Part shown: piece after piece, positions 4,147 through 40,937 of the stretch
How the letters are laid out: each line of letters opens with the position of its first letter
How positions within the stretch are numbered: position 1 is the stretch's first letter
Assembly: GCA_035575035.1 (NCBI GenBank)
Contig: DATLYH010000335.1
Span: forward strand, 1 to 40,937
Length of the DNA stretch: 40,937 bases
Origin: Gemmataceae bacterium
GTDB lineage: Bacteria > Planctomycetota > Planctomycetia > Gemmatales > Gemmataceae
Reading direction: 5' to 3'
Translations under genes and position numbers: made by a program
The notes under the pieces: model-generated
The model's database searches: none
What the model was told of the DNA's origin: nothing
What the model saw: only the letters and a program-made list of their open reading frames with translations

Positions 4147-6774
4147 TTGTCCCTGGAAACGGCTTCGTGCGGAGGTTCTCCCTTGCTGCTCCCTCCCGTG
4201 CTGATGCTCGGCCTCTTTGCCTTCACACTCTTCCTTAGCGCCACGCTGCTGTTTTTGGTCCAGCCGATGATCGGCAAGATGATGCTGCCGCACCTCGGCG
4301 GCACGCCGGCGGTCTGGAACACCTGCATGGTCTTCTTCCAGGCGGTGCTGCTGTTGGGCTACGCCTACGCCCACGCCACCACCACCTGGCTCAGTTTGCG
4401 GGCCCGCATCCTGCTGCATGCCGTCGTGCTGCTCATTCCGGTGGTCGTCTTGCCCATCAGCGTGGCCGAGACCTGGGCCCCCCGGGCCGACGCCAACCCC
4501 GTGCCCGCTGTGCTCGGGTTGCTCTTTATCACGGCCGGCTTGCCGTTCTTTGTGGTTTCCACCAGCGCCCCGCTGCTGCAAAAGTGGTTCGCCAGCACCG
4601 GCCACCCCGCAGCCCGGGACCCCTACTTCCTCTATGGAGCCAGCAACCTCGGCAGCATGCTCGCCCTGGTCGCCTACCCCGCCCTGGTCGAACCGCACTT
4701 CAACGTCGCCCAACAGAGCGTCTACTGGTCGCTCGGCTATGGGGCGCTGGCCGTGCTCACGCTGGGCTGTGCCGCCCTGGTCTGGACGTCGGGGACCACT
4801 GCCCCGGCCGAGGCGGAGGGGAAGAAGGAAGGGAAGTGGGCCAAGCTCGAGCCGGGCCCGCGCGGCTCCACCGGCATCACGCCGCCCCCTCCGCTCCGAC
4901 CTGCCCCGGCCCGTCCCGGCCGCCGTCCCCGCCCTGAACCCGGGCCGCGGCCGCTGGAGACGGCCGTCACCCCGCTGGAACGGCTGCACTGGGTGGCACT
5001 GGCCTTCGTACCGAGCAGCCTGATGCTGGGGGCAACCACCTACATCACCACCGACGTGGCCGCCATCCCGCTACTGTGGGTGCTACCGCTGGGCCTGTAC
5101 CTGCTCAGCTTCATTCTGGTCTTCTCACGGCTGCCCGGCTTCATCCACAAGGCGATGGTAGTGGCACTGCCGCTTTTGCTCCTGTTGTTGGTCTTCATGA
5201 TGATGTCGAACATCCCCGGGCGGAGTTTCTTCTTCAGCGCTTTGGTGTGGAAGATCGGCATCCACCTGCTCGTACTGTTCGTCGCTGCCATGGTCTGCCA
5301 CGGCGAGCTGGCCCGGCGCCGGCCGTCCACCAGCCACCTGACTGAGTACTATCTGCTGATGTCGGTCGGCGGCGTGCTGGGCGGCGTCTTCAACGCCCTG
5401 GTCGCCCCGCTGATCTTCACCAGTGTTGGTATTGTCGAGTATCCCCTGGCGATGATCCTGGCCCTGATGCTCCTGCCGCGCGATCCCAACGAGGACAAGA
5501 GCCGCGAGGCCTTCTTCAAGGACTTTGGCTACCCGGCCGCTCTGGGGGTGCTGTCGTTGATCCTTATCTCAGGGTTGATCCTCATTCAGCTCAAGCTCCA
5601 TGAGCTTCGCCTTTTTGTCTGGGAGGACACCAGCCGGCTGGATAACTTCTTGGAGAATTATGGCGAGCAGATCGAGGGGGCCTTTGCCAAGATCATCCGT
5701 TACGGGGTGCCGGTGGTCCTGTGCTACCTGTTCGTGGACCGGCCGCTGCGGCTGGCGCTGGGGGTCGGCGCCATCTTGCTGGCTCATGGCTTCGTGGAGC
5801 GCGCCAACAATGACATCATCCGCCAAGAGCGGAGCTTCTTCGGCGTGCTTAAAGTGGAGGAGGAGGGCCAGTTCCGCAAACTGGTCCACGGCACCACGCT
5901 GCACGGCACGCAGCGCTACCGCTGGGACAACCGCTCGCGTTTGCTGACGGTGCGGACTTACTTCCCGCTGCTGGCCTCGGCCGACCCCAGTCAGACCGTC
6001 TGTTACTGGGCGGCGATCCAGGACGAGTGGGTCGAGCCGACCCGCGAGGCGCTGACGTACTACCACCGCACCGGACCAATGGGCCAGATCATGCGGGAGT
6101 TCCGCGGGCCCAAGCGCAAGGAGCACTACGCCGTCATCGGCCTGGGGACCGGCAGCATGGCCAGCTTCGCCGAGGCTGGCCAGAAGGTCACTTTTTACGA
6201 CATCGACAAGGCTGTCAAGGAAATCGCGACCGATCCCCGTTATTTCACCTACGTCTCCGATGCCCGAGAGCGCGGGGCCCAGGTGGAGATCGTCCTCGGC
6301 GACGCTCGCGTCCGGCTGAAGGAGGAGATCCAGGACGAGAAGAATGAGCGCCACCACCATCGGTACGGGCTGCTGGTCATCGACGCCTTCAGCTCCGACG
6401 CCATCCCCATGCACCTGATCACCAAGGAGGCGGTGGAGATTTACTTGAAGAAGCTGGCCGACGACGGCGTGTTGGTCTTCCACATTTCCAACCGCCACCT
6501 CAATCTGGAGCCGGTCCTGGCCAACCTGGCCGAGGCCGTTGAGCCGCCCCTGGTGGGTTATGTGCAGACGGACGGGGACGACGACATCCCCGAGAAGGCC
6601 GCCTCAACCTGGGTGATTATGGCGCGCAAGAAGGAAGACTTCGGCGGACTGCTGGAGTTGAAGCGGGCCAGCGGCAAGCCGCGCTGGGAGCCGCTGGAGG
6701 ACAAGAAGAACCCCGCGGTCGGCGTCTGGACCGACCACTTCTCGAACATCCTCAAGGTGTTCCACTGGCGGTGA
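4147..6774 (+). CDS. fused polytopic membrane domain / spermidine-synthase-like (PABS-fold, SAM-dependent) protein
   Basis: N-terminal multi-TM region (LLFLVQPMIGKMMLPHLGGTPAVWNTCMVFFQAVLLLGYAYAH) as in the fused MFS/spermidine synthase family. C-terminal part carries HYAVIGLGTGS, YDIDKAV and LLVIDAFSSDAIPMHLITKEA, matching the aminopropyltransferase fold. A Pro-rich linker lies between the two parts. Confidence 0.65.
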   Translation: MSLETASCGGSPLLLPPVLMLGLFAFTLFLSATLLFLVQPMIGKMMLPHLGGTPAVWNTCMVFFQAVLLLGYAYAHATTTWLSLRARILLHAVVLLIPVVVLPISVAETWAPRADANPVPAVLGLLFITAGLPFFVVSTSAPLLQKWFASTGHPAARDPYFLYGASNLGSMLALVAYPALVEPHFNVAQQSVYWSLGYGALAVLTLGCAALVWTSGTTAPAEAEGKKEGKWAKLEPGPRGSTGITPPPPLRPAPARPGRRPRPEPGPRPLETAVTPLERLHWVALAFVPSSLMLGATTYITTDVAAIPLLWVLPLGLYLLSFILVFSRLPGFIHKAMVVALPLLLLLLVFMMMSNIPGRSFFFSALVWKIGIHLLVLFVAAMVCHGELARRRPSTSHLTEYYLLMSVGGVLGGVFNALVAPLIFTSVGIVEYPLAMILALMLLPRDPNEDKSREAFFKDFGYPAALGVLSLILISGLILIQLKLHELRLFVWEDTSRLDNFLENYGEQIEGAFAKIIRYGVPVVLCYLFVDRPLRLALGVGAILLAHGFVERANNDIIRQERSFFGVLKVEEEGQFRKLVHGTTLHGTQRYRWDNRSRLLTVRTYFPLLASADPSQTVCYWAAIQDEWVEPTREALTYYHRTGPMGQIMREFRGPKRKEHYAVIGLGTGSMASFAEAGQKVTFYDIDKAVKEIATDPRYFTYVSDARERGAQVEIVLGDARVRLKEEIQDEKNERHHHRYGLLVIDAFSSDAIPMHLITKEAVEIYLKKLADDGVLVFHISNRHLNLEPVLANLAEAVEPPLVGYVQTDGDDDIPEKAASTWVIMARKKEDFGGLLELKRASGKPRWEPLEDKKNPAVGVWTDHFSNILKVFHWR

Positions 6775-6783
6775 CCGAGGTGA

Positions 6784-6836
6784 CCGCTTGCAGCTTAGTG
6801 CTCGCCTCGCCGAGGCGAGCACTAAGCTGCAAGCGG
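6784..6836. repeat. near-perfect 53-bp palindrome (26-bp arms) between convergent genes; REP-like / bidirectional terminator-like; member of the GCTAAGCYGCAAGYGG family
   Basis: CCGCTTGCAGCTTAGTGCTCGCCTCG c CGAGGCGAGCACTAAGCTGCAAGCGG read directly. It lies between the stop of the 4147..6774 gene (6774) and the stop of the flotillin gene (6849). Confidence 0.8.
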
Positions 6837-6848
6837 CGAAGAAGATGT

Positions 6849-8618
6849 TCACCCCTTGGGCGGCGGCGCGTCGGATTCGTCCTTGGCTGTCGCAACCACC
6901 TGGGGGCCGTCATGGTGCTCCGGCGAGGTCGGGGCAGCCGACCGGCCCTCCGGGGCGAAGCGGGCCAAATACTCGGGCATCTCGATGCCGCCGATGTCCT
7001 TCATCACCTGCATCATCGGCGGCAGCACTCGGGCCATGCTCTGCAAGAAGTGGGCGGTGCTGGTCGTACCGTTGCCGTTGGCCCCGCCCCCTTCCCAGAC
7101 GACCACCTTGTCGAACTTGATGTTGGAGATGGCCTGGGCCGCCGTCTGGGCCAGGGTATCGAGGTGCTCCAGCATCAGCATCTGGAAGGCCTGGGAAGCG
7201 CCGCCGCAGGCCTCGATGATCCGCCGCAGGCCTTCCCCCTTCTTGGCCAGGATCTCATACTGGCCGCGGGCCTCGGCCTCGAGCTTGGCGTAGATGGCCT
7301 GGGCCTGGCCCTCCGCCTCGATACGGCGTTTTTCGGCTTCGGCTTCGGCCTCGACGATGATCTTAGCCTTCTCCGCCTTGGCCGGCGCTTCCAACGCCGC
7401 CCGCCGCTCCGCCTCGACGCGCTCGGCCTGGGCCAGAGCGGCCTTGGTCAGGGCGCGGTTCTGCGCCTCCTGCACGGCGGCCTCGGCCTCGCGCTTGCGG
7501 GTCTCGCCGAGCTGGTACGCCTCGGCCTGTTTGACCTGGAGCTGGGCCTGGGCCAGGGCGATCTTGGCCTGGGCCTCGGCCTCGCCGGCGACCGCCTTGG
7601 CGTTGGCCTCGGCAATGGCGATGCGCATCTGCCGCTCGGCGTCCTTGACCTGGGCCTCGCGCTCGAAAGCCGCGGTCTGCTCGCCGACCTTCTGCTCCTT
7701 TTCCAGCTGAGCGATGCGGACCGCCTGCTGTCGCTGGACTTCCTTGATCTGGGCCTCGCGCTCCATCGCCGCCGTCTGTTCGCCGACCTTCTGTTCCTTT
7801 TCCAACTGGGCAATGCGGACCGTCTGGTCGCGCAGGGCCTCGCGGGTGCCGATCTCGCGCACCTTGACGGCGTTGGCCACCTGGATGGCCTTCTCACGCT
7901 CGGCCTCGGCGACGCCGATCTGGCCGAGCTTCTCCTGCTCGGCCACCTCGACCTTGGCTTTCTGGACCGCCTGGCTGGCGGCCTTGCGGCCGATGGCCTC
8001 GATGTAGCCCGACTCGTCGGTGATGTCGGTGATGTTGACGTTGATCAGCACCAGGCCGATCTTCTTCAGCTCCGGCTCCAACGATGTCTGGATGTTGTGC
8101 AGAAACTTGTCGCGGTCGCGGTTGATCTCCTCGATGTGCATCGAGGCGATCACCTGGCGGAGTTGGCCGAAGATGATGTCGCCGGCCTGCTGCTTGATCT
8201 CGTCCGTGCTCAAGTGGAGCAGGCGGATGGCGGCATTGTTCATCGTCTCGGGGTCGGTGCCGATGCCGACGGTGAAGACGCTGGGGACGTTGACGCGGAT
8301 GTTCTCGGCCGACAGGGCCCCTTTGAGGGGGATCTCGATCTGGATCGGTTCCAGACTGAGATAGGCGTATTCCTGGATGAGCGGCCAGACGAAGGCCGCT
8401 CCGCCGTGAATGGGCCGCGACGCCATGCCGCCGCCCACCTTGCCGGAGATGACCAGGATCTGGTCGGGCCGGCACCGCTTGTAGCGGTTCATGAGCAGCA
8501 GCAGAAAACTGAAGAAGACGAGGGCCAGGAAGACCGGCACCAGCACCAGCCAGGGGAAATCGAAATCGGACGCGGGCGCCCCGGGCCGGCCCTGGGCAAG
8601 CAACAAGGTGTTAAGCAT
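6849..8618 (-). CDS. flotillin (SPFH/band-7 family, FloT/YqiK-like) with long coiled-coil (EA-rich) region
   Basis: N-terminal TM, then an SPFH domain (PDQILVISG...RPIHGGAAFVWPLIQEYAYLSLEPIQIEIPLKGALSAENIRVNV...IGTDPE), followed by about 250 aa of E/A/K/Q heptad-like repeats. Its ATG at 8616-8618 overlaps the stop of the upstream NfeD gene. Confidence 0.85.
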   Translation of the reverse strand: MLNTLLLAQGRPGAPASDFDFPWLVLVPVFLALVFFSFLLLLMNRYKRCRPDQILVISGKVGGGMASRPIHGGAAFVWPLIQEYAYLSLEPIQIEIPLKGALSAENIRVNVPSVFTVGIGTDPETMNNAAIRLLHLSTDEIKQQAGDIIFGQLRQVIASMHIEEINRDRDKFLHNIQTSLEPELKKIGLVLINVNITDITDESGYIEAIGRKAASQAVQKAKVEVAEQEKLGQIGVAEAEREKAIQVANAVKVREIGTREALRDQTVRIAQLEKEQKVGEQTAAMEREAQIKEVQRQQAVRIAQLEKEQKVGEQTAAFEREAQVKDAERQMRIAIAEANAKAVAGEAEAQAKIALAQAQLQVKQAEAYQLGETRKREAEAAVQEAQNRALTKAALAQAERVEAERRAALEAPAKAEKAKIIVEAEAEAEKRRIEAEGQAQAIYAKLEAEARGQYEILAKKGEGLRRIIEACGGASQAFQMLMLEHLDTLAQTAAQAISNIKFDKVVVWEGGGANGNGTTSTAHFLQSMARVLPPMMQVMKDIGGIEMPEYLARFAPEGRSAAPTSPEHHDGPQVVATAKDESDAPPPKG

Positions 8619-15248: not shown

Positions 15249-15359
15249 GGAAGAGGACGCCATGAGGCCGAATCCGATGCACCCTCAAGCAATTCCCCAT
15301 CGTCGGCTGCTCCACCACCATGCTATCGGAGGCTCTCTAGTGCCGTCGATGCCGGCCTA
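15249..15359 (+). repeat. copy 1 of a ~110-bp dispersed direct repeat (second copy at 23147..23256, ~97% identical)
   Basis: GGAAGAGGACGCCATGAGGCCGAATCCGATGCACCCTCAAGCAATTCCCCATCGTCGGCTGCTCCACCACCATGCTATCGGAGGCTCTCTAGTGCCGTCGATGCCGGCCTA. It differs from copy 2 by 3 substitutions. Confidence 0.9.
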
Positions 15360-19708: not shown

Positions 19709-19957
19709 GGTGCTGTTCTCCGAAGAGGAAGGAATACCCTGCTTCTGTTGACTATAGCGCTCCGCCGGGCCGGAGGCAACGACAGGCGGGAGCGACGGCC
19801 GGTCGGGGAAGGGCCGGCGGGGCCGGCGTTGACGGCCTTTCCGCGGGGGGATAAGTTGAGCAGGATAATGCGGACTCCATTGATCAAACCATGCGAGGAC
19901 GTTTAGCCGCGAGCCGCGGTGGCACTGGCTGTCAGCCGGTGCCACAACATCCCTCTC

Positions 19958-19995
19958 TTCCAAGGGGAGAGGAGATAGGGGTGAGGGGGAACGCG
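19958..19995. repeat. degenerate copy of the GC-rich palindromic element (GGGGAGAGG...GGGGTGAGGGGG) in the leuS 5' UTR
   Basis: CCCTCTCTTCCAAGGGGAGAGGAGATAGGGGTGAGGGGGAAC, compared with the right arm GGGGGAGAGGGGGAGGGGTGAGGGGG of the copy at 36973-36998. Confidence 0.55.
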
Positions 19996-20014: not shown

Positions 20015-22813
<2,799 letters not shown>

Positions 22814-22921: not shown

Positions 22922-23146
22922 TCCTGCGAACGCTGTACTTAGCCCGCGGCCAGCTGCGCGCCGAACCGGCGCCGGTACTCCGCCAGGACGGCCAGCTTGC
23001 ACAGCCACTTGTACCACCGCGGCAGATGGGGCCAATAGGGGCTTGATTGGATCAACGGATCATCATGCTTGAATATATATGCCTGCATGCGTTGCTGCTT
23101 GGCGCTGCGTCAGTGTGTGCTATCATGAGAAGACCCGGGAGCGTCG

Positions 23147-23256
23147 GAAGAGGACGCCATGAGGCCGAATCCGATGCACCCTCAAGCAATTCCCCATCGT
23201 CGACTGCTCCACCACCGTGCTATCGGGGGCTCTCTAGTGCCGTCGATGCCGGCCTA
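23147..23256 (+). repeat. copy 2 of the ~110-bp dispersed direct repeat (see 15249..15359)
   Basis: Near-identical sequence. It is preceded by an AT-richer stretch (23040-23146) and followed by TTTTAGTTTGG. Confidence 0.9.
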
Positions 23257-23858: not shown

Positions 23859-24207
23859 AGTAGGCTCCTATCGTGATGGCCCGCAATGGGGCCGAGCTTA
23901 ACTCTACCTCGGCCAACTTCCTCGTTCGGGATCGGCATCAGCCTGCGCCGAATCGTGGACAGCGGGCAGGGCTGGCCGAGGGTCATCCCCTGCCCGAAAA
24001 AAGAACGTTCGCCGGACCTGAACTTGCGCGGACAGCACAGATGGGGTTGGAACAGCATGGCAGGTCGCAGGATCCTGCCGCAGAGCCCGAAGCGTCCGCG
24101 ACGGGTTGACGGTGCCCGTCGCGGACGTTCCAGGCTCGTAGGAACATCGACCCGTCGCGGACGTTCCGGGCTCTGACAGTACACGCTCCGGGCTCGGACC
24201 CAGGCGC

Positions 24208-25842
24208 TCAGTAATCCTCCAGGCGAAGCTCTTTGCTGTCGGCGTTCTTCCACGCCGCCTGGAGCTCCTGCTCAACCAGCCGGGCAGCGTAGTCCTTCTT
24301 CTGTGCCTTAAGGCTCTCCCGCAGGCCGAAGAGGCAGCGGCCGTTGCGCGGGTGCTTCGCCAGTCCGGCGCGGAAAACCTCTTCCGCCCCGGCCGCGTCG
24401 CCGCTCCCAAGGAGCACCGCCCCGAGCGTCTCTCGCACCGGCATCAACCAGTCCGGCGGCTCGCCGTAATGCAGCGCATCCTCCAGCCGCACCGCCCGGC
24501 GCAGCAAGTTGATTGTCCGGCGCCGGTCGCCCCCGGCCAAGGCCAGCTTGGCGTCCAGGACCGCCGCAGCGATTCCCAGCACGTGCTGGGCCGTGTTCCA
24601 GTCGCTGATCTTCATGTCCTCCGGGATCGTCTTCTTCACCGCTAGGAACTCCTTGCGCTCCTGCCCGGCTTTTTGCACATCACCCTTGGCCAGGTGGGCG
24701 AGGGCGCGAGCGAAGTGCCAGGTAGCCCGGGTGAACGGCCGCTTTTCGCCGGGGGAGGGAGAGGCGAGGATATCGTCCCAGCGGTTAAAGCGGACCAGGA
24801 CCACGGTCGGCGTCACTAGGAAACCCTCGAGCATGGGCATTTCCTCGATGTGCGGCTCGACGTGAGCGGCGAGGCGGTCGGCCGCTTCCTTGGCGGCGGC
24901 GAAGCGGCCCTGGAAGCAGTGGGCTGCGGCCAGGAAGTGGATGTTGTGCGGATAGTACATCAGCCAGTAGACGCCCTGGGTGCCGTGGCTTTTGAAGTAC
25001 GCTTGGTCGGCGGCGATCGCCTCCTCATTAGCCCGGGCGGCTGCGGCGTAGTCGCCGACGCGCATGTAGATGTGCGACGGCATATGCACCAGATGGCCGG
25101 CGGCCGGCACCAGCGTCCGCAGCCGGTCGGCGCAGGCTAGGCCGCGCTCCGGATACGGGGAAGCTTCAATAGCATGGATGTAGTAGTGATTGGCCCCGGG
25201 ATGGTTGGGGTTGCGGCGCAGGACCGACTCCAACGTGGCGAGGAGCTCCGCGGTCCCCTCCGCGGGCTTGCCGTCCGGCGTCCAGAGTTTCCACGGCCGC
25301 AGGTTCATGGCGCTCTCGGCGTAGAGCGTGGCCGCGTCCAGGTCGTCGGGGTACTTGCGGGCCAACTCGCCCATCGCCTCCTTGTAGGCGACGGCCAACT
25401 TCTGCCGGTTGGCGTCCGGGTCGAGGGAGTAGCGCTTCGCCAGCGCCTTGATGTAGTCGCGCTCCGGCTCGGGGGCATTCGACGCCAGGTGAAGAGCCTT
25501 CAGCAGCGCCGCGTTCGCTGCCTTCCACTGCTCGCTGTCGGCGTCGAGGTTGTAGTTCGGCCCCTTGGCCAGCGCCAACCCCCAGTAGGCCATCGCCAGG
25601 TTCGGATCAAGCTCGGCAGCCTGGGCGAACGACCGGGCTGCCTCGTCGTGGTTGAAGGCGTACAGGAGGATCAGTCCCTGGTCGAAGAATTTCTGCGCCA
25701 GGGCATTGCGGGTCGAGACAGGATGGTGATGATTGCCGAGCCCGGCGATCAGCACGGCCTTGCCTTCCGGTTTCGTCGGAGGATGGTCCGCCCGGACGAA
25801 GCCACACAACAGGACCAGCGCCAGAGCCACGCGCACCTTCAT
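24208..25842 (-). CDS. secreted tetratricopeptide-repeat (TPR) protein
   Basis: Signal peptide MKVRVALALVLLCGFVRA, then multiple TPR-like helical pairs (AMAYWGLALAKGPNYNL...; EAAARANEEAIAADQAYFK...). Confidence 0.6.
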   Translation of the reverse strand: MKVRVALALVLLCGFVRADHPPTKPEGKAVLIAGLGNHHHPVSTRNALAQKFFDQGLILLYAFNHDEAARSFAQAAELDPNLAMAYWGLALAKGPNYNLDADSEQWKAANAALLKALHLASNAPEPERDYIKALAKRYSLDPDANRQKLAVAYKEAMGELARKYPDDLDAATLYAESAMNLRPWKLWTPDGKPAEGTAELLATLESVLRRNPNHPGANHYYIHAIEASPYPERGLACADRLRTLVPAAGHLVHMPSHIYMRVGDYAAAARANEEAIAADQAYFKSHGTQGVYWLMYYPHNIHFLAAAHCFQGRFAAAKEAADRLAAHVEPHIEEMPMLEGFLVTPTVVLVRFNRWDDILASPSPGEKRPFTRATWHFARALAHLAKGDVQKAGQERKEFLAVKKTIPEDMKISDWNTAQHVLGIAAAVLDAKLALAGGDRRRTINLLRRAVRLEDALHYGEPPDWLMPVRETLGAVLLGSGDAAGAEEVFRAGLAKHPRNGRCLFGLRESLKAQKKDYAARLVEQELQAAWKNADSKELRLEDY

Positions 25843-32047: not shown

Positions 32048-33244
32048 ATGGTGGCAACTGCGATGGCGATAGCAGAGAAGAGACTGGGCCTCGGCTCGCT
32101 GACCGGCTTCGACTTCCACGCGCCGACGCGGGTGATCTTCGGGGCCGGTTCGCTGGCCCGGCTGGGCGAGGTGGCCTGCGACCTGGGCGAGTCGCGCGTG
32201 CTGCTGGTCACCGATCCCGGGCTGGAGGCGGCCGGCCATCCGCAGCGAGCGGCAGCTTCCCTGCGCGAAGCGGGCCTGGAGGTCTTCATCTTTGACGGGG
32301 TGGAGGAGAACCCGACCAACCGCCATGTCGAGGCCGGCGTGGCGTTCGCCCGGCCACTCGGCATCGACCTGATCGTCAGCGTCGGCGGCGGCAGCGCCAT
32401 GGACTGCGCCAAGGGGATCAACTTCCTCCTGACCAACGGCGGCACCATGGCCGACTACAAGGGCTTCGGCAAGGCGCGCAAGCCGATGCTGCCGTCAATC
32501 GGTGTGCCGACCACCGCCGGCACCGGCAGCGAGGCGCAGTCATACGCCCTGATTGCCGACGAGCGCAGCCATATGAAGATGGCTTGCGGCGACCGCAAAG
32601 CCGCTTTCCACGTCGCCATCCTCGATCCCGAGGTGACCGTGTCGCAGCCGCCGCGCGTCACCGCCCTGACCGGCATTGATGCCCTGTCGCACGCCGTCGA
32701 GTCGTATGTCACTACCAAGCGCAATCCGGTGTCGCAGATGTTCGCCCGGGAGGCCTGGCAACTCCTGGAGGCGAACTTCGCCAAGGTGCTCCGCGATCCC
32801 AACGACCTCGACGCCCGCGGAGCCATGCAGATGGGGGCATTTCTGGCCGGCACCGCCATCGAGAACTCGATGCTCGGCGCCACTCACGCCTGCGCCAATC
32901 CGCTAACCGCCCACTACGGACTGACGCACGGCCTGGCGGTCGGCCTGATGTTGCCACACGTGGTCCGCTTCAATGCTGCCGTGGTTGGCCCGCTCTACGC
33001 CGAGCTAATGGAGCAGGCTGGGCTGCTCAACGGCGAGCCGGGAGTGGCCGGCGAGTTGCTGGCCGGGCGATTAGAGGAATTGATGCAGGCCACCGGTCTG
33101 CCGACCCGGCTGAGGGACTTGGGCGTTAGCCGAGGCATTCTGCCGGTGCTGGCCGAGGAGGCGGCGCAGCAGTGGACCGCCCGCTTCAATCCGCGCCCCG
33201 TGACCGAGGCCGACCTGCTACGGCTATACGAGGCGGCGTTCTAA
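32048..33244 (+). CDS. iron-containing (group III) alcohol dehydrogenase
   Basis: GGGSAMDCAKG glycine-rich NAD(P) motif, IGVPTTAGTGSE, and metal-binding His residues in the ALSHAVES and THGLAVG contexts. 398 aa. Confidence 0.9.
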   Translation: MVATAMAIAEKRLGLGSLTGFDFHAPTRVIFGAGSLARLGEVACDLGESRVLLVTDPGLEAAGHPQRAAASLREAGLEVFIFDGVEENPTNRHVEAGVAFARPLGIDLIVSVGGGSAMDCAKGINFLLTNGGTMADYKGFGKARKPMLPSIGVPTTAGTGSEAQSYALIADERSHMKMACGDRKAAFHVAILDPEVTVSQPPRVTALTGIDALSHAVESYVTTKRNPVSQMFAREAWQLLEANFAKVLRDPNDLDARGAMQMGAFLAGTAIENSMLGATHACANPLTAHYGLTHGLAVGLMLPHVVRFNAAVVGPLYAELMEQAGLLNGEPGVAGELLAGRLEELMQATGLPTRLRDLGVSRGILPVLAEEAAQQWTARFNPRPVTEADLLRLYEAAF

Positions 33245-33257
33245 CCGCGAGCCACTG

Positions 33258-33298
33258 GCGGCTAAGCCGCAAGCGGCTTAGCCGCTTGCGGCTTAGCG
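33258..33298. repeat. REP-like compound palindrome (GCTAAGCCGCAAGC / GCTTGCGGCTTAGC), same family as 6784..6836 and 25869..25888
   Basis: GGCGGCTAAGCCGCAAGCGGCTTAGCCGCTTGCGGCTTAGCG lies immediately after the adh stop. Confidence 0.75.
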
Positions 33299-33322
33299 AT
33301 TAGACGAACGGAGGTTTCCGAC

Positions 33323-34447
33323 ATGACATCCACGCACTGGTGCAGGCTTCCTGCACTGGTCCTGGTCCTGTTTGTCCTGTCGTTGCCGGCGGCTGACGAC
33401 AAACCTTCCGCCGACTGGCCGATGGTGCGCGGCAACCCCCTGCAAAACGGCGTCGCCGGCACTGACCTGCCCCAGGAGCTGCAGCTGCGCTGGAAGTTCG
33501 AGACCAAGGACGCCATCGAGGGGACGGCGGCCATCGTGGGCGACACAGTCTACGTCGGCTCGTTTGACCAACATCTCTATGCCCTCGACCTGGCCAGCGG
33601 CAAGGAAAAGTGGAAGTACAAAGGGGGGCCGTTCCGCGCCTCGCCGAGCGTCCGGGGCGGGTTGGTTTATGTCGGCGACGGCGACGGTACCTTCCACTGT
33701 GTGGAGGCGGCCACCGGCAAGAAGCGCTGGACGTTCGCGACCAAGGCCGAGATCATGTCGGGGGCCAACTTTGCCGGCGATGCGGTCCTGTTCGGCTCCA
33801 GTGACGAACACCTTTACTGCCTGTCCGGCGACGGTAAGCTGCGCTGGAAGTTCCAGGTGCCCGGCGGCCCGGTACTCGGCTCGCCCGCAGTGGTGGACGG
33901 ACGGACCTTCGTGGCCGGCTGCGACAGCGCCCTGCACGTGCTTGACGCCGCCAAGGGGACCGAGCTGAAGTCAGTCGAGCTGAGCGGCCAGGTGGGGGCG
34001 AGCGTGGCGGTGGCCGGCGACCGGCTCTACGTCGGCACCATGACCAACCAGGTGCAGGCCATCGACTGGAAGGCGGGGAAGGTCCTCTGGACGTTCGAAG
34101 CGAAGAAGCAGCGACAGCCGTTCTACGCCTCCGCGGCGGTGACCGAGCAGTTGGTGATCATTGGCAGCCGGGACCGGCGCGTCTACGCCCTGGACCGCAC
34201 GAAGGGGACCGAAGTCTGGAGCTTCCTAACCGGCAACCGGGTGGACAGCTCGCCGGTGGTCGCCGGTCAGCGCGTCTTCGTCGGATCGTTCGACGGCAAG
34301 CTGTACGTGCTCGATCTGGAAAAGGGGACGGAATTGCAGAGGTTCGACCTCGGCAGCGCGATCATCGCCTCACCGGCGGTGGGCCGGGGCTGCCTGGTGA
34401 TCGGCACGGAGAAAGGTGTGGTGTACTGCTTCGGAACGAAGCAGTAG
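33323..34447 (+). CDS. secreted PQQ-like beta-propeller repeat protein (BamB/YfgL-like fold)
   Basis: Signal peptide, then repeated ...VYVGS.DG.LYALD...G...W blades (VYVGSFDQHLYALDLASGKEKWKY, VYVGDGDGTFHCVEAATGKKRWTF, and others). GGAGG SD. Confidence 0.75.
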   Translation: MTSTHWCRLPALVLVLFVLSLPAADDKPSADWPMVRGNPLQNGVAGTDLPQELQLRWKFETKDAIEGTAAIVGDTVYVGSFDQHLYALDLASGKEKWKYKGGPFRASPSVRGGLVYVGDGDGTFHCVEAATGKKRWTFATKAEIMSGANFAGDAVLFGSSDEHLYCLSGDGKLRWKFQVPGGPVLGSPAVVDGRTFVAGCDSALHVLDAAKGTELKSVELSGQVGASVAVAGDRLYVGTMTNQVQAIDWKAGKVLWTFEAKKQRQPFYASAAVTEQLVIIGSRDRRVYALDRTKGTEVWSFLTGNRVDSSPVVAGQRVFVGSFDGKLYVLDLEKGTELQRFDLGSAIIASPAVGRGCLVIGTEKGVVYCFGTKQ

Positions 34448-34470
34448 CCCGGCGGAGGGAGGTCTGCATC

Positions 34471-35859
34471 ATGGCGACCGTCGAGACGACCCAGGAAAAG
34501 ACTGGCCTCGGCAATTACTTCGTGGCCAACTACCCGCCCTTCTCCTTCTGGAAGCCGGCCCATCTCCCCGCCGCGCATGCCGCCCTCCAGTCGGCGCCGA
34601 AGCCCGACACGCCGCTTGGGCTGTACCTGCACATTCCGTTTTGCCGGAAGCGGTGCAAGTTCTGCTATTTCCGCGTCTACACCGACAAGAATGCCCGCGA
34701 TGTGGAGACCTATACCGAGGCGCTAATCAAGGAAGTCGAGCTGTACAGCCGGCTGCCGGCCGTGGGCGGTCGGCCCTTGCACTATGTCTACTTTGGCGGC
34801 GGCACGCCGTCGTACCTGAGCGCGACGCAGCTTCGCGGGTTGATGACCCGGCTACAAGCGATCATGCCGTGGGATCAGGCGGAGGAGGTGACTTTCGAGT
34901 GCGAGCCGGGCACCCTCCAGCTGCACAAGTTGGAAACGCTTAAGGAAATGGGGGTCACTCGGCTGAGTCTCGGCATCGAGAACTTCGACCCGAAGATCCT
35001 GGAGTTCAACGGACGGGCCCATCTGGAGGAAGAGATCTACCGGGCGATGGACTGGGCCCGGCAGGTTGGCTTTGACCAGATCAACATCGACCTGATCGCC
35101 GGCATGGTCGGTGAGAGTTGGGACAACTGGCGCGAGTGCGTCCGCAAGACGCTGGCGCTGGCCCCCGACAGTGTTACCATCTATCAGATGGAGTTGCCCT
35201 ACAACACCATCTTCTCGAAGGAACTGCTTGGGAAAGATGAAGGCAGAAGGATGAAGGATGAAAAAAGACCCGGCGACGGTTCTTCCCTGCATCCTCCCTC
35301 TTTTATCCTTCATCCGTTCCAGGTTGCCGACTGGCCGACCAAGCGGGCCTGGGTCAGCTACGCCTTTGACGAGTTCCTCAAGGCCGGCTACGAGATCTCC
35401 AGCGCCTATACAGTGGTCAAGAGCCGCCAGCGCTGCCGCTTCGTTTACCGCGACAGTCTCTGGCACGGCGCCGACATGTTCGGCACCGGCGTCGCCTCGT
35501 TCGGCCATGTTAATGGCGTCCATATCCAGAACGTGGACCAGTGGGAGCCGTACATCGGCCTGCTTCAGAAGGGGGAATTGCCGCTGGGCCGCGCGCTGCC
35601 GGTCGGCCCGCGCGAACTCCTCATCCGCGAGATGATCTTGCAGCTGAAGACAGGCCAGCTCGACGCCGCCTACTTCCGGCGGAAGTTCGGCGTGGATATA
35701 CTACAGACTTTTGCGGAGGGCTTCGGCCGGCTGGCCGAGGAAGGGTATCTGACCGTGGGCGAAGATGGCGTGGAACTGACCCGTCAGGGGTTGTTGCAGG
35801 TGGACCGCCTGCTGCCGACCTTCTTCGAGCCAGAGCACCGGGGGACGCGCTACACCTGA
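34471..35859 (+). CDS. radical SAM enzyme of the HemN/HemW (oxygen-independent coproporphyrinogen-III oxidase-like) family, carrying an in-frame ~27-aa insertion
   Basis: CRKRCKFCYF (CxxxCxxC), GGGTPSYL, and HemN-like distal motifs (LSLGIENFDPKIL, QINIDLIAGM). A HemN_C-like C-terminal domain is present. See the repeat at 35236..35316 for the insertion. Confidence 0.8.
   Translation: MATVETTQEKTGLGNYFVANYPPFSFWKPAHLPAAHAALQSAPKPDTPLGLYLHIPFCRKRCKFCYFRVYTDKNARDVETYTEALIKEVELYSRLPAVGGRPLHYVYFGGGTPSYLSATQLRGLMTRLQAIMPWDQAEEVTFECEPGTLQLHKLETLKEMGVTRLSLGIENFDPKILEFNGRAHLEEEIYRAMDWARQVGFDQINIDLIAGMVGESWDNWRECVRKTLALAPDSVTIYQMELPYNTIFSKELLGKDEGRRMKDEKRPGDGSSLHPPSFILHPFQVADWPTKRAWVSYAFDEFLKAGYEISSAYTVVKSRQRCRFVYRDSLWHGADMFGTGVASFGHVNGVHIQNVDQWEPYIGLLQKGELPLGRALPVGPRELLIREMILQLKTGQLDAAYFRRKFGVDILQTFAEGFGRLAEEGYLTVGEDGVELTRQGLLQVDRLLPTFFEPEHRGTRYT
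35236..35316. repeat. 81-bp AT-rich, inverted-repeat-bounded insertion (MITE-like) lying in-frame inside the HemN-like CDS
   Basis: GATGAAGGCAGAAGGATGAAGGATGAAAAAAGA cccggcgacggttcttccctgcatcctccc TCTTTTATCCTTCATCC. The terminal inverted repeats GGATGAAGGATGAAAAAAGA and TCTTTTATCCTTCATCC flank a spacer. GC content is far below the flanking CDS. It encodes ...KDEGRRMKDEKRPGDGSSLHPPSFILHP... in a loop between conserved HemN motifs. Confidence 0.6.
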
Positions 35860-35862
35860 TCA

Positions 35863-35917
35863 GAGCCGCGAGCGTCAGCGAGCGTTGAGACGCCCCGCTC
35901 GCTGACGCTCGCGGCTC
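35863..35917 (+). other. perfect 22-bp-stem RNA hairpin in the 76-nt spacer between the HemN-like and gcvH-like genes (no U-tract)
   Basis: GAGCCGCGAGCGTCAGCGAGCG-ttgagacgccc-CGCTCGCTGACGCTCGCGGCTC. The stop of the upstream gene is at 35859 and the start of the downstream gene at 35936. Confidence 0.8.
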
Positions 35918-35935
35918 GGACACGGTCTGCACCGA

Positions 35936-36397
35936 ATGGACAATCTGACCTTTATGATGGGCAAGTTCCCGGCCGAGCTGCCGGGCGACCTGCTCTACGC
36001 GACCACCAACCACATGTGGTGCCGCCCGGTCGGGAGCCGCTACCGCTTCGGCTTTACCTCCTACGCCGTCCGCCTGATGCAGGATGTCTACTTCCTTGAC
36101 TGGGTGGTCAATGCCGGTGATACCGTGCATCACCTGCAACAGATTGGCCACATCGAAACATCCAAGGCGGTGGCCGACCTGTTCGCCCCGATGGCCGGGA
36201 CAATCGTGGCGTTCAACCGGGAGCTATTGAAGGACCCGTCGGCCATCAACGTCGATAAGTACGGGGCCGGCTGGCTGTTTGAGATGGAGGGGGACGCCCG
36301 CCACCTGAGGACCGCGGCCGAGTATCATCAGTTCCTGACCGACAACTGGGAAAAGACCCAGCGGCTGATCAAGGGCAAGATCAACCTCGAAGATTGA
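35936..36397 (+). CDS. glycine-cleavage-system H-protein-like lipoyl-carrier protein (stand-alone, not with gcvT/gcvP)
   Basis: H-protein fold motifs: YATTNHMW, YAV, IGHIETSKAVADLFAPMAGTIVAFN (lipoyl-Lys context), INVDKYGAGWLFEME. 153 aa. Confidence 0.75.
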   Translation: MDNLTFMMGKFPAELPGDLLYATTNHMWCRPVGSRYRFGFTSYAVRLMQDVYFLDWVVNAGDTVHHLQQIGHIETSKAVADLFAPMAGTIVAFNRELLKDPSAINVDKYGAGWLFEMEGDARHLRTAAEYHQFLTDNWEKTQRLIKGKINLED

Positions 36398-36406
36398 GAC
36401 CACCCC

Positions 36407-37480
36407 ATGAGCCGTCACCGCCTCACCGTCGTGCTGTCACAGGCCCCGGGCAAGAATCCGACCAAGCGGGCGCTGGAGGAAAGCATCGTCGCCGCCCTGA
36501 TCACCGAGCCGGGGTTGGATGTGTCGGTCGTTCCCTACCTCTACGACCTGGACGCCAACCATACCGGCCGACTGTTCCTGGAGTCGATCACCGGCGACAT
36601 GGTGGTGCTGGCCTGGATGTTTCCGCGGGCAGCGTTCTGGGTCCTGGACCGCGACGGCATCAAGGGACACTTCGGCGAGAGCCGCCTCAAGCCGCCCGCC
36701 GCCGATGATGACGAGGAAGACGGTGAGCCCGAGCCGCCCCGGGGCATTGGCTCTGTCAATGTGCCGGACCGGTACATTTACTGCCTCGACCTGCGCGACT
36801 TCGCCAGCCATGAGCCTTATGTCCAGGAAGTTCGGCGGATCGCCGAGGAGTGCCGGCAGCGGTACGAAGCGAAGCAGCGGGAGCGGGCCCAAGCCAACCC
36901 GCCGCTGGTGCAGCTGGGCCTCTCGGTGCGGGCCGACGAGCCCCCCTCACCCCCACCCCTCTCCCCCGCGGCGGGGGAGAGGGGGAGGGGTGAGGGGGCG
37001 CCGCATTTCAAGCCCGAGGATCTGCTGAAGCCGCCGGAGCGCCGCTGGTATCCGGTTATCGACTACAGCCGCTGCACCAATTGCATGGAGTGCATCGATT
37101 TTTGCCTGTTCGGCGTCTACGGCGTGGATCAATTCGACCGAATCTTCGTCGAGAATCAGGACAACTGCAAGCGCGGCTGTCCAGCGTGCAGCCGGGTCTG
37201 TCCCGAGCATGCCATCATGTTCCCCGACTACAAGACGCCGGCCATCGCGGGGGCGCCGGTCGGCGGCATCAGCGGGTTGAAGATCGACCTGACGAAGCTG
37301 TTCGGCGGCGATGACGCCATCAAGATCGCCGCCGCCGAGCGCGACCGCGAGCTGATCAAGGACGGCCGGCAGGCAGTCGGCCTGACGGTCGGCATCCCCA
37401 AGCGCCAGGCCGCCAAGCCGCAGCAGCCGAAGGATGATCTGGACAAGCTGGTGGACTCCCTGGACGCGCTGGATATTTGA
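36407..37480 (+). CDS. two-domain protein: N-terminal domain of unknown function + C-terminal 2x[4Fe-4S] ferredoxin-like domain; contains an in-frame GC-rich palindromic element in the linker
   Basis: CTNCMECIDFC (CxxCxxCxxxC) and CKRGCPACSRVCP (CxxxCxxCxxxCP). The linker ...ADEPPSPPPLSPAAGERGRGEGAP... is encoded by the palindrome at 36943-36998. Confidence 0.6.
   Translation: MSRHRLTVVLSQAPGKNPTKRALEESIVAALITEPGLDVSVVPYLYDLDANHTGRLFLESITGDMVVLAWMFPRAAFWVLDRDGIKGHFGESRLKPPAADDDEEDGEPEPPRGIGSVNVPDRYIYCLDLRDFASHEPYVQEVRRIAEECRQRYEAKQRERAQANPPLVQLGLSVRADEPPSPPPLSPAAGERGRGEGAPHFKPEDLLKPPERRWYPVIDYSRCTNCMECIDFCLFGVYGVDQFDRIFVENQDNCKRGCPACSRVCPEHAIMFPDYKTPAIAGAPVGGISGLKIDLTKLFGGDDAIKIAAAERDRELIKDGRQAVGLTVGIPKRQAAKPQQPKDDLDKLVDSLDALDI
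36943..36998. repeat. GC-rich palindromic element, copy A: CCCCTCACCCCCACCCCTCTCCCCC-gcggc-GGGGGAGAGGGGGAGGGGTGAGGGG. Four G-tracts give G-quadruplex potential. It lies in-frame inside a CDS.
   Basis: 25-nt arms are reverse complements with 2 mismatches. The right arm has a G5-N3-G5-N1-G4-N3-G5 pattern. Confidence 0.85.
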
Positions 37481-40375: not shown

Positions 40376-40937
40376 TCAAGCGGACTCCAGATAGCGCTGC
40401 CGCTCCCAGTCGGTCACCGCCGTTCGGAACAACTCCCATTCCCGGCGGGCCATCTCGACCAGGTGCCGCGCCAGGACCGGGCCGAGCGCCTCTTGCAGCA
40501 CCGTGTCGGCCTCGAACGCAGCGATCCCTTCGGGCAGGGTCCGCGGCAGTGCAGTGCCCCGGACGTAGGCGTCGCCGTCAGTGCGCCCCGGCGGCATCAG
40601 GCGGCGGCGCAGACCATCGAGCGCCGCCGCGGCGCAGCCGGCCAGCAACAGGTAGGGGTTGGCATCAGCGGCGCCGCCCCGGTACTCCAGCCGCCGCTCC
40701 GGCCCGTGCCCCAACACGCGCACCGCTGCCGTGCGATTGTCCACGCCCCAGGTCGCCGTCGTCGGCGCGAACGAGTGCTCGACCAGCCGCTTGTACCCAT
40801 TGACGGTGGTGGATGAAAGGAAGATCAGGCCGGGGAGATGGGCCAGCAGCCCCGCCAGGCAGTGCTCCATCAGCCGGTTGCCGAGTGGGCTATCGCCCCC
40901 CTCACCCCCGACCCCTCTCCCCCCGAGGGGGGAGAGG
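40376..40937 (-). CDS. glutamine synthetase family protein, C-terminal catalytic part only (gene continues beyond window end); contains copy B of the GC-rich palindromic element in-frame
   Basis: IFLSSTTVNGYKRLVEHSFAPTTATWGVDNRTAAVRV...EYRGGAADANPYLLLAG matches GS catalytic-domain C-terminal motifs. The frame stays open upstream through 40937 and encodes ...GGRGVGGEGGDSPLGNRLMEHC.... Confidence 0.75.
   Translation of the reverse strand, partial: LSPLGGRGVGGEGGDSPLGNRLMEHCLAGLLAHLPGLIFLSSTTVNGYKRLVEHSFAPTTATWGVDNRTAAVRVLGHGPERRLEYRGGAADANPYLLLAGCAAAALDGLRRRLMPPGRTDGDAYVRGTALPRTLPEGIAAFEADTVLQEALGPVLARHLVEMARREWELFRTAVTDWERQRYLESA
40896..40937. repeat. GC-rich palindromic element, copy B (truncated by window end): CCCCTCACCCCCGACCCCTCTCCCCCC-gagg-GGGGAGAGG...
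   Basis: The left arm is identical to copy A apart from a 1-nt indel. It lies inside the open reading frame of the GS-like gene on the minus strand. Confidence 0.8.

Follow-up and report, generated by a model that had tools for sequence, protein, structure and literature searches.

The BoxC repeats of Escherichia coli have been described under several names, having been re-described as PIT (potential intrastrand triplex) elements, then as TMECO and also as the HPGQ G-quadruplex/hairpin switch (PMC4666352, PMC5100583, together with the previous work of the Maher group that both papers cite). Their TMECO consensus reads CCCTCNCCC N3-6 GGGNGAGGG N3 GGGNGAGGG, with 23 E. coli copies tabulated (Holder et al. 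2015, PMC4666352), and a census lists 3610 copies in 262 proteobacterial genomes (PMC4666352, PMC5100583). Single strands of the E. coli element fold in vitro into an intrastrand triplex that is stable, and dimethyl sulphate (DMS) footprinting in vivo gave no triplex signal (PMC4666352); in addition, a K+/Mg2+-dependent transition between G-quadruplex (G4) and hairpin has been followed in vitro (Kaplan et al. 2016, PMC5100583). According to the summary of an earlier study in PMC4666352, BoxC was inactive as a promoter or terminator, and in vivo studies revealed no effect. Holder et al. found the motif unassociated with transposons, phages or plasmids (PMC4666352), the E. coli loci that carry it show raised local sequence variability and frequent inverted pairs, and both E. 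coli studies stress that not one copy lies within an open reading frame (ORF) (PMC4666352, PMC5100583). Here, we compare with these repeats a GC-rich hairpin element in contig DATLYH010000335.1, the whole 40.9-kb contig of a metagenome-assembled genome (MAG) of the Gemmataceae (Planctomycetota), which we call the window. It holds three copies of the element, two of them in frame inside genes.

Palindromes inside genes are best known from the Rickettsia palindromic elements (RPEs), which, in the accounts given in PMC10969869 and PMC3733652, lie in frame in unrelated conserved protein genes, where the added peptide is tolerated at permissive sites, and also occur between genes. The repetitive extragenic palindromes (REPs) with a GTAG/CGTC tag are hairpins of 20-40 bp that are mainly extragenic, with some copies wholly within ORFs in several phyla, and the genes hosting these intragenic copies include that of DNA ligase and others with roles in replication and repair (Di Nocera et al. 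2013, PMC3733652).

Based on the identity and order of its sequence blocks, the window element is probably a long-stem, partly merged-palindrome variant of the BoxC/PIT/TMECO/HPGQ repeats. A previous sequence-only reading of this DNA had found the element at all three places but did not recognise it as a described family; its core is the BoxC/PIT/TMECO/HPGQ motif, the triplex, hairpin and G4 folding of which has already been studied (PMC4666352, PMC5100583). The C-block CCCTCNCCC, the G-block GGGNGAGGG and the second G-block GGGNGAGGG follow each other on the same strand in copy 1 (on both strands), in copy 2 (minus strand) and in copy 3, where the C-block is degenerate, as compared with Table 1 of PMC4666352. 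The element and the E. coli repeats thus share the three blocks CCCTC(T/G)CCC, GGGAGAGGG and GGGTGAGGG in the same order, down to the same T/G mismatch variant, and the window blocks CCCCTCTCCCC-loop-GGGGAGAGGGG-NN-GGGGTGAGGGG equal the BoxC/TMECO blocks plus one G/C at each end. Direct inspection of the E. coli hrpB-mrcB copy pair revealed the same blocks; a BLAST search of the element against E. coli genomes returned no match, as expected for a 71-nt low-complexity query. Besides, both repeats are patchily distributed, occur as inverted pairs, have no associated mobility gene as far as seen and, the window element with its three loci in 41 kb being probably dispersed and multi-copy like BoxC, have a G-rich strand that is predicted to be capable of hairpin, triplex and G4 formation. 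They differ in four respects: the stems of the window element measure 11-13 nt instead of 9, the units of copy 1 are fused on a shared hairpin whereas the E. coli units are separate with 16-36 nt between them (Table 1 coordinates, PMC4666352), the host is a planctomycete in contrast to the 262 proteobacterial genomes of the published census, and two of the three window copies lie inside genes and are read through, compared with none within an ORF in E. coli.

Copy 1 (CCCCCTCACCCCCACCCCTCTCCCCCGCGGCGGGGGAGAGGGGGAGGGGTGAGGGGG) is a near-perfect palindrome of 57 bp with more than 80% GC. A repeat finder returned two arms of 28 nt each, 93% complementary and 1 nt apart, and the stem comprises 12 bp plus 13 bp with a loop of 3 nt, so the palindrome as such had been correctly spotted beforehand and only its proposed geometry of 25+5+25 nt was not. 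The C1-loop-G1-G2 triplex motif can be read on either strand, the architecture being that of two inverted units fused and sharing one central hairpin. In the window, the arm pattern GGGGAGAGGGGNNGGGGTGAGGGG matches twice, once per strand of the palindrome, against 0.01 matches expected. Nearest-neighbour folding of copy 1 as single-stranded DNA gave -36.5 kcal/mol (z = -7.5; 0 of 200 shuffles equally good), and the predicted folding energy as RNA is -61.7 kcal/mol. The G-rich arm contains a canonical G4 motif (four runs of at least three G, 1-7 nt spacing) with a G4Hunter score of 2.79, in agreement with the G4 capability suggested earlier. G4 formation faces competition from the complementary C arm, which is part of the same strand, and the isolated G arm as a G4 reaches -32.5 kcal/mol compared with -61.7 kcal/mol for the RNA hairpin of the full element; by these predicted energies, a G4 would be thermodynamically disfavoured in the full palindrome and the hairpin would win on the same strand. 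The sequence has the mirror relation between G1 and G2 on which a triplex would depend (G·G, A·A and T·A triads). On each strand, one of the three frames contains TGA and the other two are open, encoding Pro/Ser/Leu-rich and then Gly/Arg/Glu-rich peptides.

The remaining two copies are less complete. The minus strand of copy 2 reads ...CCTCTCCCCCC-TC-GGGGGGAGAGGGG-TC-GGGGGTGAGGGGGG, which corresponds to C1-loop-G1-G2, and is translated within the ORF of a glutamine synthetase (GS)-like protein as ...LSPLGGRGVGGEGGDSPLG. Copy 3 has kept its G1-G2 blocks, the hairpin partner in the C-block being eroded, and ends 24 nt 5' of the leuS ATG; the degenerate copy postulated for the 5' untranslated region of leuS was thus found upstream of the start codon, in DNA that may belong to this region. 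All three copies align over CCCCCTCACCCC-NN-CCCCTCTCCCC-loop-GGGG.GAGG, and their similarity stops at the unit itself.

To place the element in a wider frame, we scanned a 596-Gb library with one genome per species for the pattern GGGGAGAGG-N2-6-GGGGTGAGGGG, in which the partner C-block is not required. At least 119 loci were found in Alpha-, Beta- and Gammaproteobacteria, Myxococcota, Planctomycetota, Verrucomicrobiota, Acidobacteriota, Chloroflexota and others. Since several tens of chance matches are estimated from composition alone for a library of this size, the locus count by itself proves little. Among the 135 matches listed, 102 have the complementary block CCTC[TG]CCC within 25 nt upstream, where it pairs with the first G-block as a hairpin, and because the search pattern did not demand this partner, we regard the matches as a family and not as chance. 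Also among the matches listed, 33 of the 102 with a partner share the CCTCGCCC mismatch variant (G-for-T), and the motif with its hairpin partner is present in Proteobacteria, Myxococcota, Planctomycetota, Verrucomicrobiota and Acidobacteriota; five listed Chloroflexota matches have no partner C-block and may be due to chance. The long-stem form accounts for 11 of the 22 Planctomycetota and 5 of the 10 Acidobacteriota matches listed. A second pattern, used on metagenomes, is the reverse complement of the ordinary unit, and its 135 matches serve as a sample of the long-stem variant. The fused full-palindrome form of copy 1 makes up 7 of the 135 listed matches of the genome sample and likewise 7 of 135 in the metagenome sample. 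With the same motif in many phyla, the idea of a lineage-specific element had to be given up. A search of the open-access literature, which is weak evidence, found no description of in-frame BoxC-type copies or of BoxC-type units outside Proteobacteria or in planctomycetes.

As a side observation, some genomes of several Proteobacteria, Myxococcota and Verrucomicrobiota have two copies per locus that share tens of bases of flank (L011, L074, L094, L098, L103, L112, L079). A longer repeat may enclose the triplex unit there.

Copy 1 lies in the gene of a ferredoxin-family protein. The copy is read as PPSPPPLSPAAGERGRGEGAP and encodes residues ~179-198, which fall into a hypervariable linker between ...LVQLG and PRFxPEQLL. 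This protein has thousands of homologs, and over 100 of these are full-length orthologs that are 71-83% identical to it; when aligned, they hardly vary in the N-terminal and 4Fe-4S parts, and the linker, which is 0 to ~60 aa long in 111 orthologs, is unalignable. Both flanks of copy 1 belong to this one conserved gene, which substantiates the in-frame read-through proposed earlier, at least for the ferredoxin-domain gene. The ortholog alignment also agrees with the earlier view of a dispersed repeat and not a native linker: the closest ortholog (P0002, 83-88% identity) is without the element, and the window has a net 39 additional bases at the linker in comparison with its DNA. An AlphaFold2 model of the protein had a mean predicted local distance difference test score (pLDDT) of 46 with no predicted structure in the linker; it was too poor and was not used.

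Peptides encoded by the element occur in four sublineages of the ortholog set, represented by P0001, P0004 (together with its degenerate relative P0057), P0082 and P0100, and these four carriers share just 78-85% identity among themselves. Outside the linker, the nearest relatives of P0001 (88% identical), P0082 (93%) and P0100 (85%) are without the element; for P0004, the nearest relative P0057 (94%) has a degenerate remnant and the next one, P0085 (89%), has no element. The DNA of P0082 contains a bona fide unit of the mismatch subtype CCCCTCGCCCC that has no C2 (outer C-) block and is unlike the subtype of the window copy; at the same site, P0105 has an unrelated 39-nt linker and P0110 only three codons. 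Because four sublineages carry the element while their nearest relatives are mostly without it, the best explanation of the pattern is that the element reached this one permissive linker separately and repeatedly, with at least four sublineages involved.

In other orthologs, the same linker contains further peptides of repeat-like appearance. In P0070, different peptides that look palindrome-encoded (SEDRGSRIEDRGS...SSILDPRSSILGS) are found, P0058 has ERGAQS...ALGAPRS, likewise palindrome-encoded in appearance, and P0093 has an NGNGAS tandem repeat. From these peptides, several different repeat families apparently entered the same ferredoxin-protein linker.

Copies inside genes are also found in other genomes. 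We called a copy as lying in a coding sequence (CDS) when a spanning ORF had at least 80 codons on each side and a coding GC pattern (GC3 high, GC1 > GC2). By this measure, 6 of 140 copies of the genome scan (among the matches listed) are in CDS, compared with 41% of random control positions, and 13 of 94 long-stem units of the metagenomes, compared with 40%. Thus, ~4-14% of the scored copies are in frame in genes, the majority being intergenic, and the family is 3- to 10-fold depleted in CDS relative to random placement, yet not excluded from it. In-gene copies with Pfam domains on either side occur in RNase R (between the OB and CSD2 domains), UvrA, the NAD-dependent DNA ligase LigA, a fused E1 dehydrogenase (two copies), a PSCyt2/PSD1 protein, a lipoyl-E3 protein, NuoE-NuoF and a polyketide-type synthase; a further copy is located in DsbD of an isolate of Cedecea sp., between the N-terminal and membrane domains. 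These copies use both orientations and both open frames, with ...GRGVGGEGG, ...GERAGVRG and PLTPALSP... as typical peptides. The analogy with RPEs drawn in the sequence-only reading fits, the copies being in frame, tolerated in linkers or loops and open in two of three frames per strand, and this behaviour was confirmed in other genomes.

For the second host gene, the evidence is thinner. Copy 2 encodes the first 19 visible residues of the GS-like protein, and solved GS structures align to it only from residue 17-20 on, i.e. directly after the element. The best homologs are 46-49% identical and mostly fragments, and the stretch with the element is a length-variable loop region across the family.

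RPEs are AT-rich sequences of Rickettsia. They measure ~100-150 bp and form ten families in that genus, in contrast to the BoxC-type element with 35-57 bp, more than 80% GC and an occurrence common to many phyla. Like RPEs, the BoxC-type element sits in frame at permissive sites of unrelated conserved protein genes, namely in the ferredoxin-protein linker and at inter-domain sites in at least ten other proteins, and also between genes. As a 57-bp sequence of more than 80% GC in a Gemmataceae MAG, it does not belong to the RPEs when judged by composition and length, rather than by comparison of consensus sequences, and the likeness is one of behaviour and not of membership. With the intragenic GTAG/CGTC REPs it shares a short hairpin that is mainly extragenic with a minority of copies in genes, here LigA, UvrA and RNase R; unlike in these REPs, the defining tag is absent from the window copies and no RAYT (REP-associated tyrosine transposase) association is known or was seen among the 20 window ORFs scanned. 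Furthermore, REP sequences vary by species, whereas the BoxC-type motif is nearly identical in distant phyla. The element does not resemble a miniature inverted-repeat transposable element (MITE) either, as the whole element is the hairpin, with no terminal inverted repeats outside it and no target-site duplication seen at the compared, 7-17% diverged sites.

Taken as a whole, we propose that the element is a non-autonomous repeat that would behave as a selfish or neutral passenger. On single strands, the full palindrome would fold into a hairpin of 25-28 bp, and formation of a G4 or triplex would require opening of the outer stem. New copies would arise through a probably replication- or repair-linked process that exploits this hairpin. 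Most copies landing in genes would be purged, with the survivors being those in frame where a flexible peptide is tolerated, and the host protein would neither require the insert nor suffer much from it. In the replacement-like junction of P0082, there is a hint of repair or template switching instead of a cut-and-paste route.

Several observations weigh against the assignment to BoxC or against this passenger model. The strict published TMECO regular expression matches no window copy: counted from 9-nt cores, the window spacers are 9 and 4 nt compared with the published 3-6 and 3. A relaxed expression with spacers of 2-10 and 2-5 nt matches copy 1 on both strands, and the mismatch in spacing arises from the extra G/C at the block ends, which results in stems of 11-13 nt and a second loop of 2 nt. 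The intergenic-only location reported for the E. coli family does not apply to copies 1 and 2; this location describes the E. coli copies and does not enter into the definition of the family. Because spacing and location are non-canonical, we treat the element as a variant and not as a typical member, membership resting on block identity and order. The copy count is based on 41 kb, and the 11-kb locus of the closest relative has no copy and a 21-kb locus of another Gemmataceae one. For the GS-like gene, with homologs of at most 49% identity, copy 2 is no more than a candidate insertion, and the comparison of P0082 with P0105 resembles a replacement of the linker and not a clean insertion. Neither a mobilising gene nor a target-site duplication or terminal inverted repeat was seen at the compared sites and in 20 window ORFs; no duplicated flank was found at copy 1 versus P0002 or at P0082 versus P0105, sites that are 7-17% diverged, so that a duplication of 2-3 bp could be missed. 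Finally, we infer translation through an RNA hairpin of -62 kcal/mol from the continuity of the ORF and the conservation of the orthologs.

The strongest competing explanation, although we consider it unlikely, is that the element is a selected structural switch (hairpin, G4 or intrastrand triplex) and that the in-gene copies are functional and not merely tolerated. The switch might slow the ribosome at a domain boundary, expose the mRNA to cleavage of the RNase III type, or serve as a site of recombination or replication pausing. The very stable hairpin and the G4Hunter score of the G arm fit this idea, as do the triplex and the K+/Mg2+-dependent G4-hairpin transition of the E. coli version in vitro (PMC4666352, PMC5100583), the raised local variability at the E. 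coli motif loci (PMC4666352) and the very high conservation of the blocks, even of the mismatch variant, across phyla. The CDS copies are indeed positioned at domain boundaries; however, purifying selection alone would lead to the same location. The 3- to 10-fold depletion in CDS also argues against selected in-gene copies, as do the unrelated host genes and positions and the nearest orthologs, which do well without the insert. In line with this, PMC4666352 reports DMS footprinting without a triplex signal and, in its summary of an earlier study, no promoter or terminator activity or in vivo effect.

Rather less probable still is a miniature element that is mobilised by a transposase, either a REP served by a RAYT or a MITE served by the transposase of an insertion sequence (IS). 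It would account for a dispersed, multi-copy repeat with patchy occurrence among relatives and independent gains at one site, and among the GTAG/CGTC families, REPs that lie in frame within genes have been recorded from several phyla (PMC3733652). However, no GTAG/CGTC tag flanks any of the three window copies, terminal inverted repeats outside the hairpin and a target-site duplication were not seen, and the 20 larger window ORFs scanned, a subset of all ORFs, gave no transposase-like Pfam match. The lack of a transposon, phage or plasmid association in the data of Holder et al. (PMC4666352) points in the same direction, and REPs are species-specific in sequence, in contrast to a motif that is near-identical across phyla.

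We give very little credit to the idea that the segment arose on the spot as a native linker of low complexity, rich in Pro and Gly, which resembles the other copies and BoxC due to high GC and codon bias. Many orthologs have a hypervariable linker with much Pro, Ala and Gly, and the genome has 65% GC, but this reading is already contradicted by the results: nothing in the protein would account for an inverted repeat, intergenic sites and unrelated genes contain the same DNA, the closest ortholog is without it, the two arm-pattern matches exceed by far the 0.01 expected, and more G1-G2 copies are found at the contig end and 5' of leuS. The least credible explanation, an assembly artefact caused by chimeric joining of MAG contigs at the repeat, is suggested by the MAG source and by the break of the assembly inside copy 2, but both flanks of copy 1 are parts of a single gene, with which over 100 full-length orthologs are collinear, and the same arrangement recurs in an independent assembly (P0082 in L242) and in an isolate genome (Cedecea dsbD, L078).

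The coordinates of the copies, their host genes and further features of the window are compiled in Table 1.

Table 1. Positions of the BoxC-type copies, their host genes and other features in the window
Feature	Position	Strand	Sequence or description
Copy 1, whole element	36942-36998		inverted arms 36942-36969 and 36971-36998
Copy 1, C2 block	36943-36953		CCCCTCACCCC
Copy 1, C1 block	36956-36966		CCCCTCTCCCC
Copy 1, central GC loop	36967-36973		
Copy 1, G1 block	36974-36984		GGGGAGAGGGG
Copy 1, G2 block	36987-36997		GGGGTGAGGGG
Copy 1, G4 motif	36973-36998		GGGGGAGAGGGGGAGGGGTGAGGGGG
Copy 2	40895-40937 (last 43 bases)	minus (coding) strand	cut by contig end
Copy 3	~19950-19990	+	degenerate, intergenic: CCCTCTCTTCC-AA-GGGGAGAGG-AGAT-AGGGGTGAGGGGG
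Host gene 1	36407-37480	+	357-aa conserved ferredoxin-family protein, 4Fe-4S domain residues 214-270
Host gene 2	40376-40937	-	C-terminal 186 aa of glutamine-synthetase-family protein (PF00120)
leuS	20015-22813	+	leucyl-tRNA synthetase, gene downstream of copy 3
Conserved gene string	32048-37480		five genes, ending with host gene 1
Direct repeat, 111 nt	15249-15359 and 23146-23256		begins 13 nt 5' of an ATG (15262)
Palindrome, 26 bp	6784-6836		between convergent ORFs 4147-6774 (+) and 6849-8618 (-, SPFH/Band 7)
Inverted repeat, 29 nt	24081-24175		just 3' of a TPR-repeat gene, 24208-25842 (-)
Tandem duplication, 99 nt	7629-7826		within the SPFH/Band 7 gene

The window is 63-68% GC throughout, and a Pfam scan of its 20 larger ORFs yielded ordinary planctomycete housekeeping and envelope genes. 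Across the whole window, no Rfam match attained the gathering score of its family, and no tRNAs are present; for the hairpin of the element, only eukaryotic microRNA precursor models came up, and with 37 bits versus gathering scores of 64-168 they were rejected as generic GC-hairpin matches. The gene string, which is conserved in Gemmataceae, consists of Fe-ADH, a PQQ beta-propeller protein, a HemN-like radical SAM protein, a GcvH-like protein and the ferredoxin-family protein. Downstream of it, conservation ends, with a radical SAM gene, hemC and GS in the window and a squalene-hopene cyclase elsewhere; GS orthologs beside ferredoxin genes were not found in long Gemmataceae contigs, where the downstream synteny differs (squalene-hopene cyclase region).

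Other repeats are also present in this contig. The two copies of the direct repeat are 97% identical and 7.9 kb apart with unrelated flanks; the repeat would encode MRPNPMHPQAIPHRRLLHHHAIGGSLVPSMPAY, has no Rfam match and could be a shared 5' leader/N-terminus of two genes or another small repeat. The perfect palindrome with a 1-nt centre between two convergent ORFs looks like a bidirectional terminator hairpin. The arms of the 29-nt inverted repeat are 90% complementary and 37 nt apart, and its sequence is unrelated to the BoxC-type element. The tandem duplication consists of two copies with 85% identity, flanked by more internal repeats of the Ala/Glu/Leu type. Besides, 17 of the 135 metagenome units are found no more than 60 nt from a contig end (L122-L241), and the window contig itself ends inside copy 2, in keeping with the behaviour of assemblers at dispersed repeats; BoxC-type repeats appear to fragment short-read assemblies.

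For the window alone, the result is mostly the re-identification of a known repeat. New, as far as can be judged from the open-access literature, would be the host range beyond Proteobacteria, the architecture with long stems and a fused palindrome, and the context of in-frame copies in inter-domain linkers. Knowledge of BoxC/PIT/TMECO in E. coli dates back to the 1990s, and the repeat was regarded as a structural curiosity of proteobacterial DNA that is confined to intergenic sites. Our results turn the motif into a testable mobile-element problem, since filled and empty orthologous sites could define its ends and the chemistry of insertion. In practical terms, such repeats appear to break metagenome assemblies, and the odd Pro/Gly-rich segments that they create in annotated proteins should not be taken for functional motifs.

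What is explained least is why the blocks are nearly identical across phyla. A triplex or G4 restricts the G runs by its geometry and accommodates the A/T positions, yet does not obviously demand the exact sequence, and for this reason a shared sequence-specific partner is possible. In this context, we tentatively consider, as a conjecture with rather less than an even chance, that BoxC/TMECO-type motifs all belong to one family of tiny elements, spread throughout the bacteria and still copied into new sites, repeatedly including the same permissive linkers of essential proteins, by a sequence-specific mechanism common to distant phyla, be it an unrecognised mobilising enzyme or a conserved side-reaction of replication or repair on the hairpin. 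If this is true, the in-gene copies with datable empty sites would provide the first handle on the spread of BoxC, and the family would be a general source of new inter-domain linker peptides, similar to RPEs but reaching beyond one genus.

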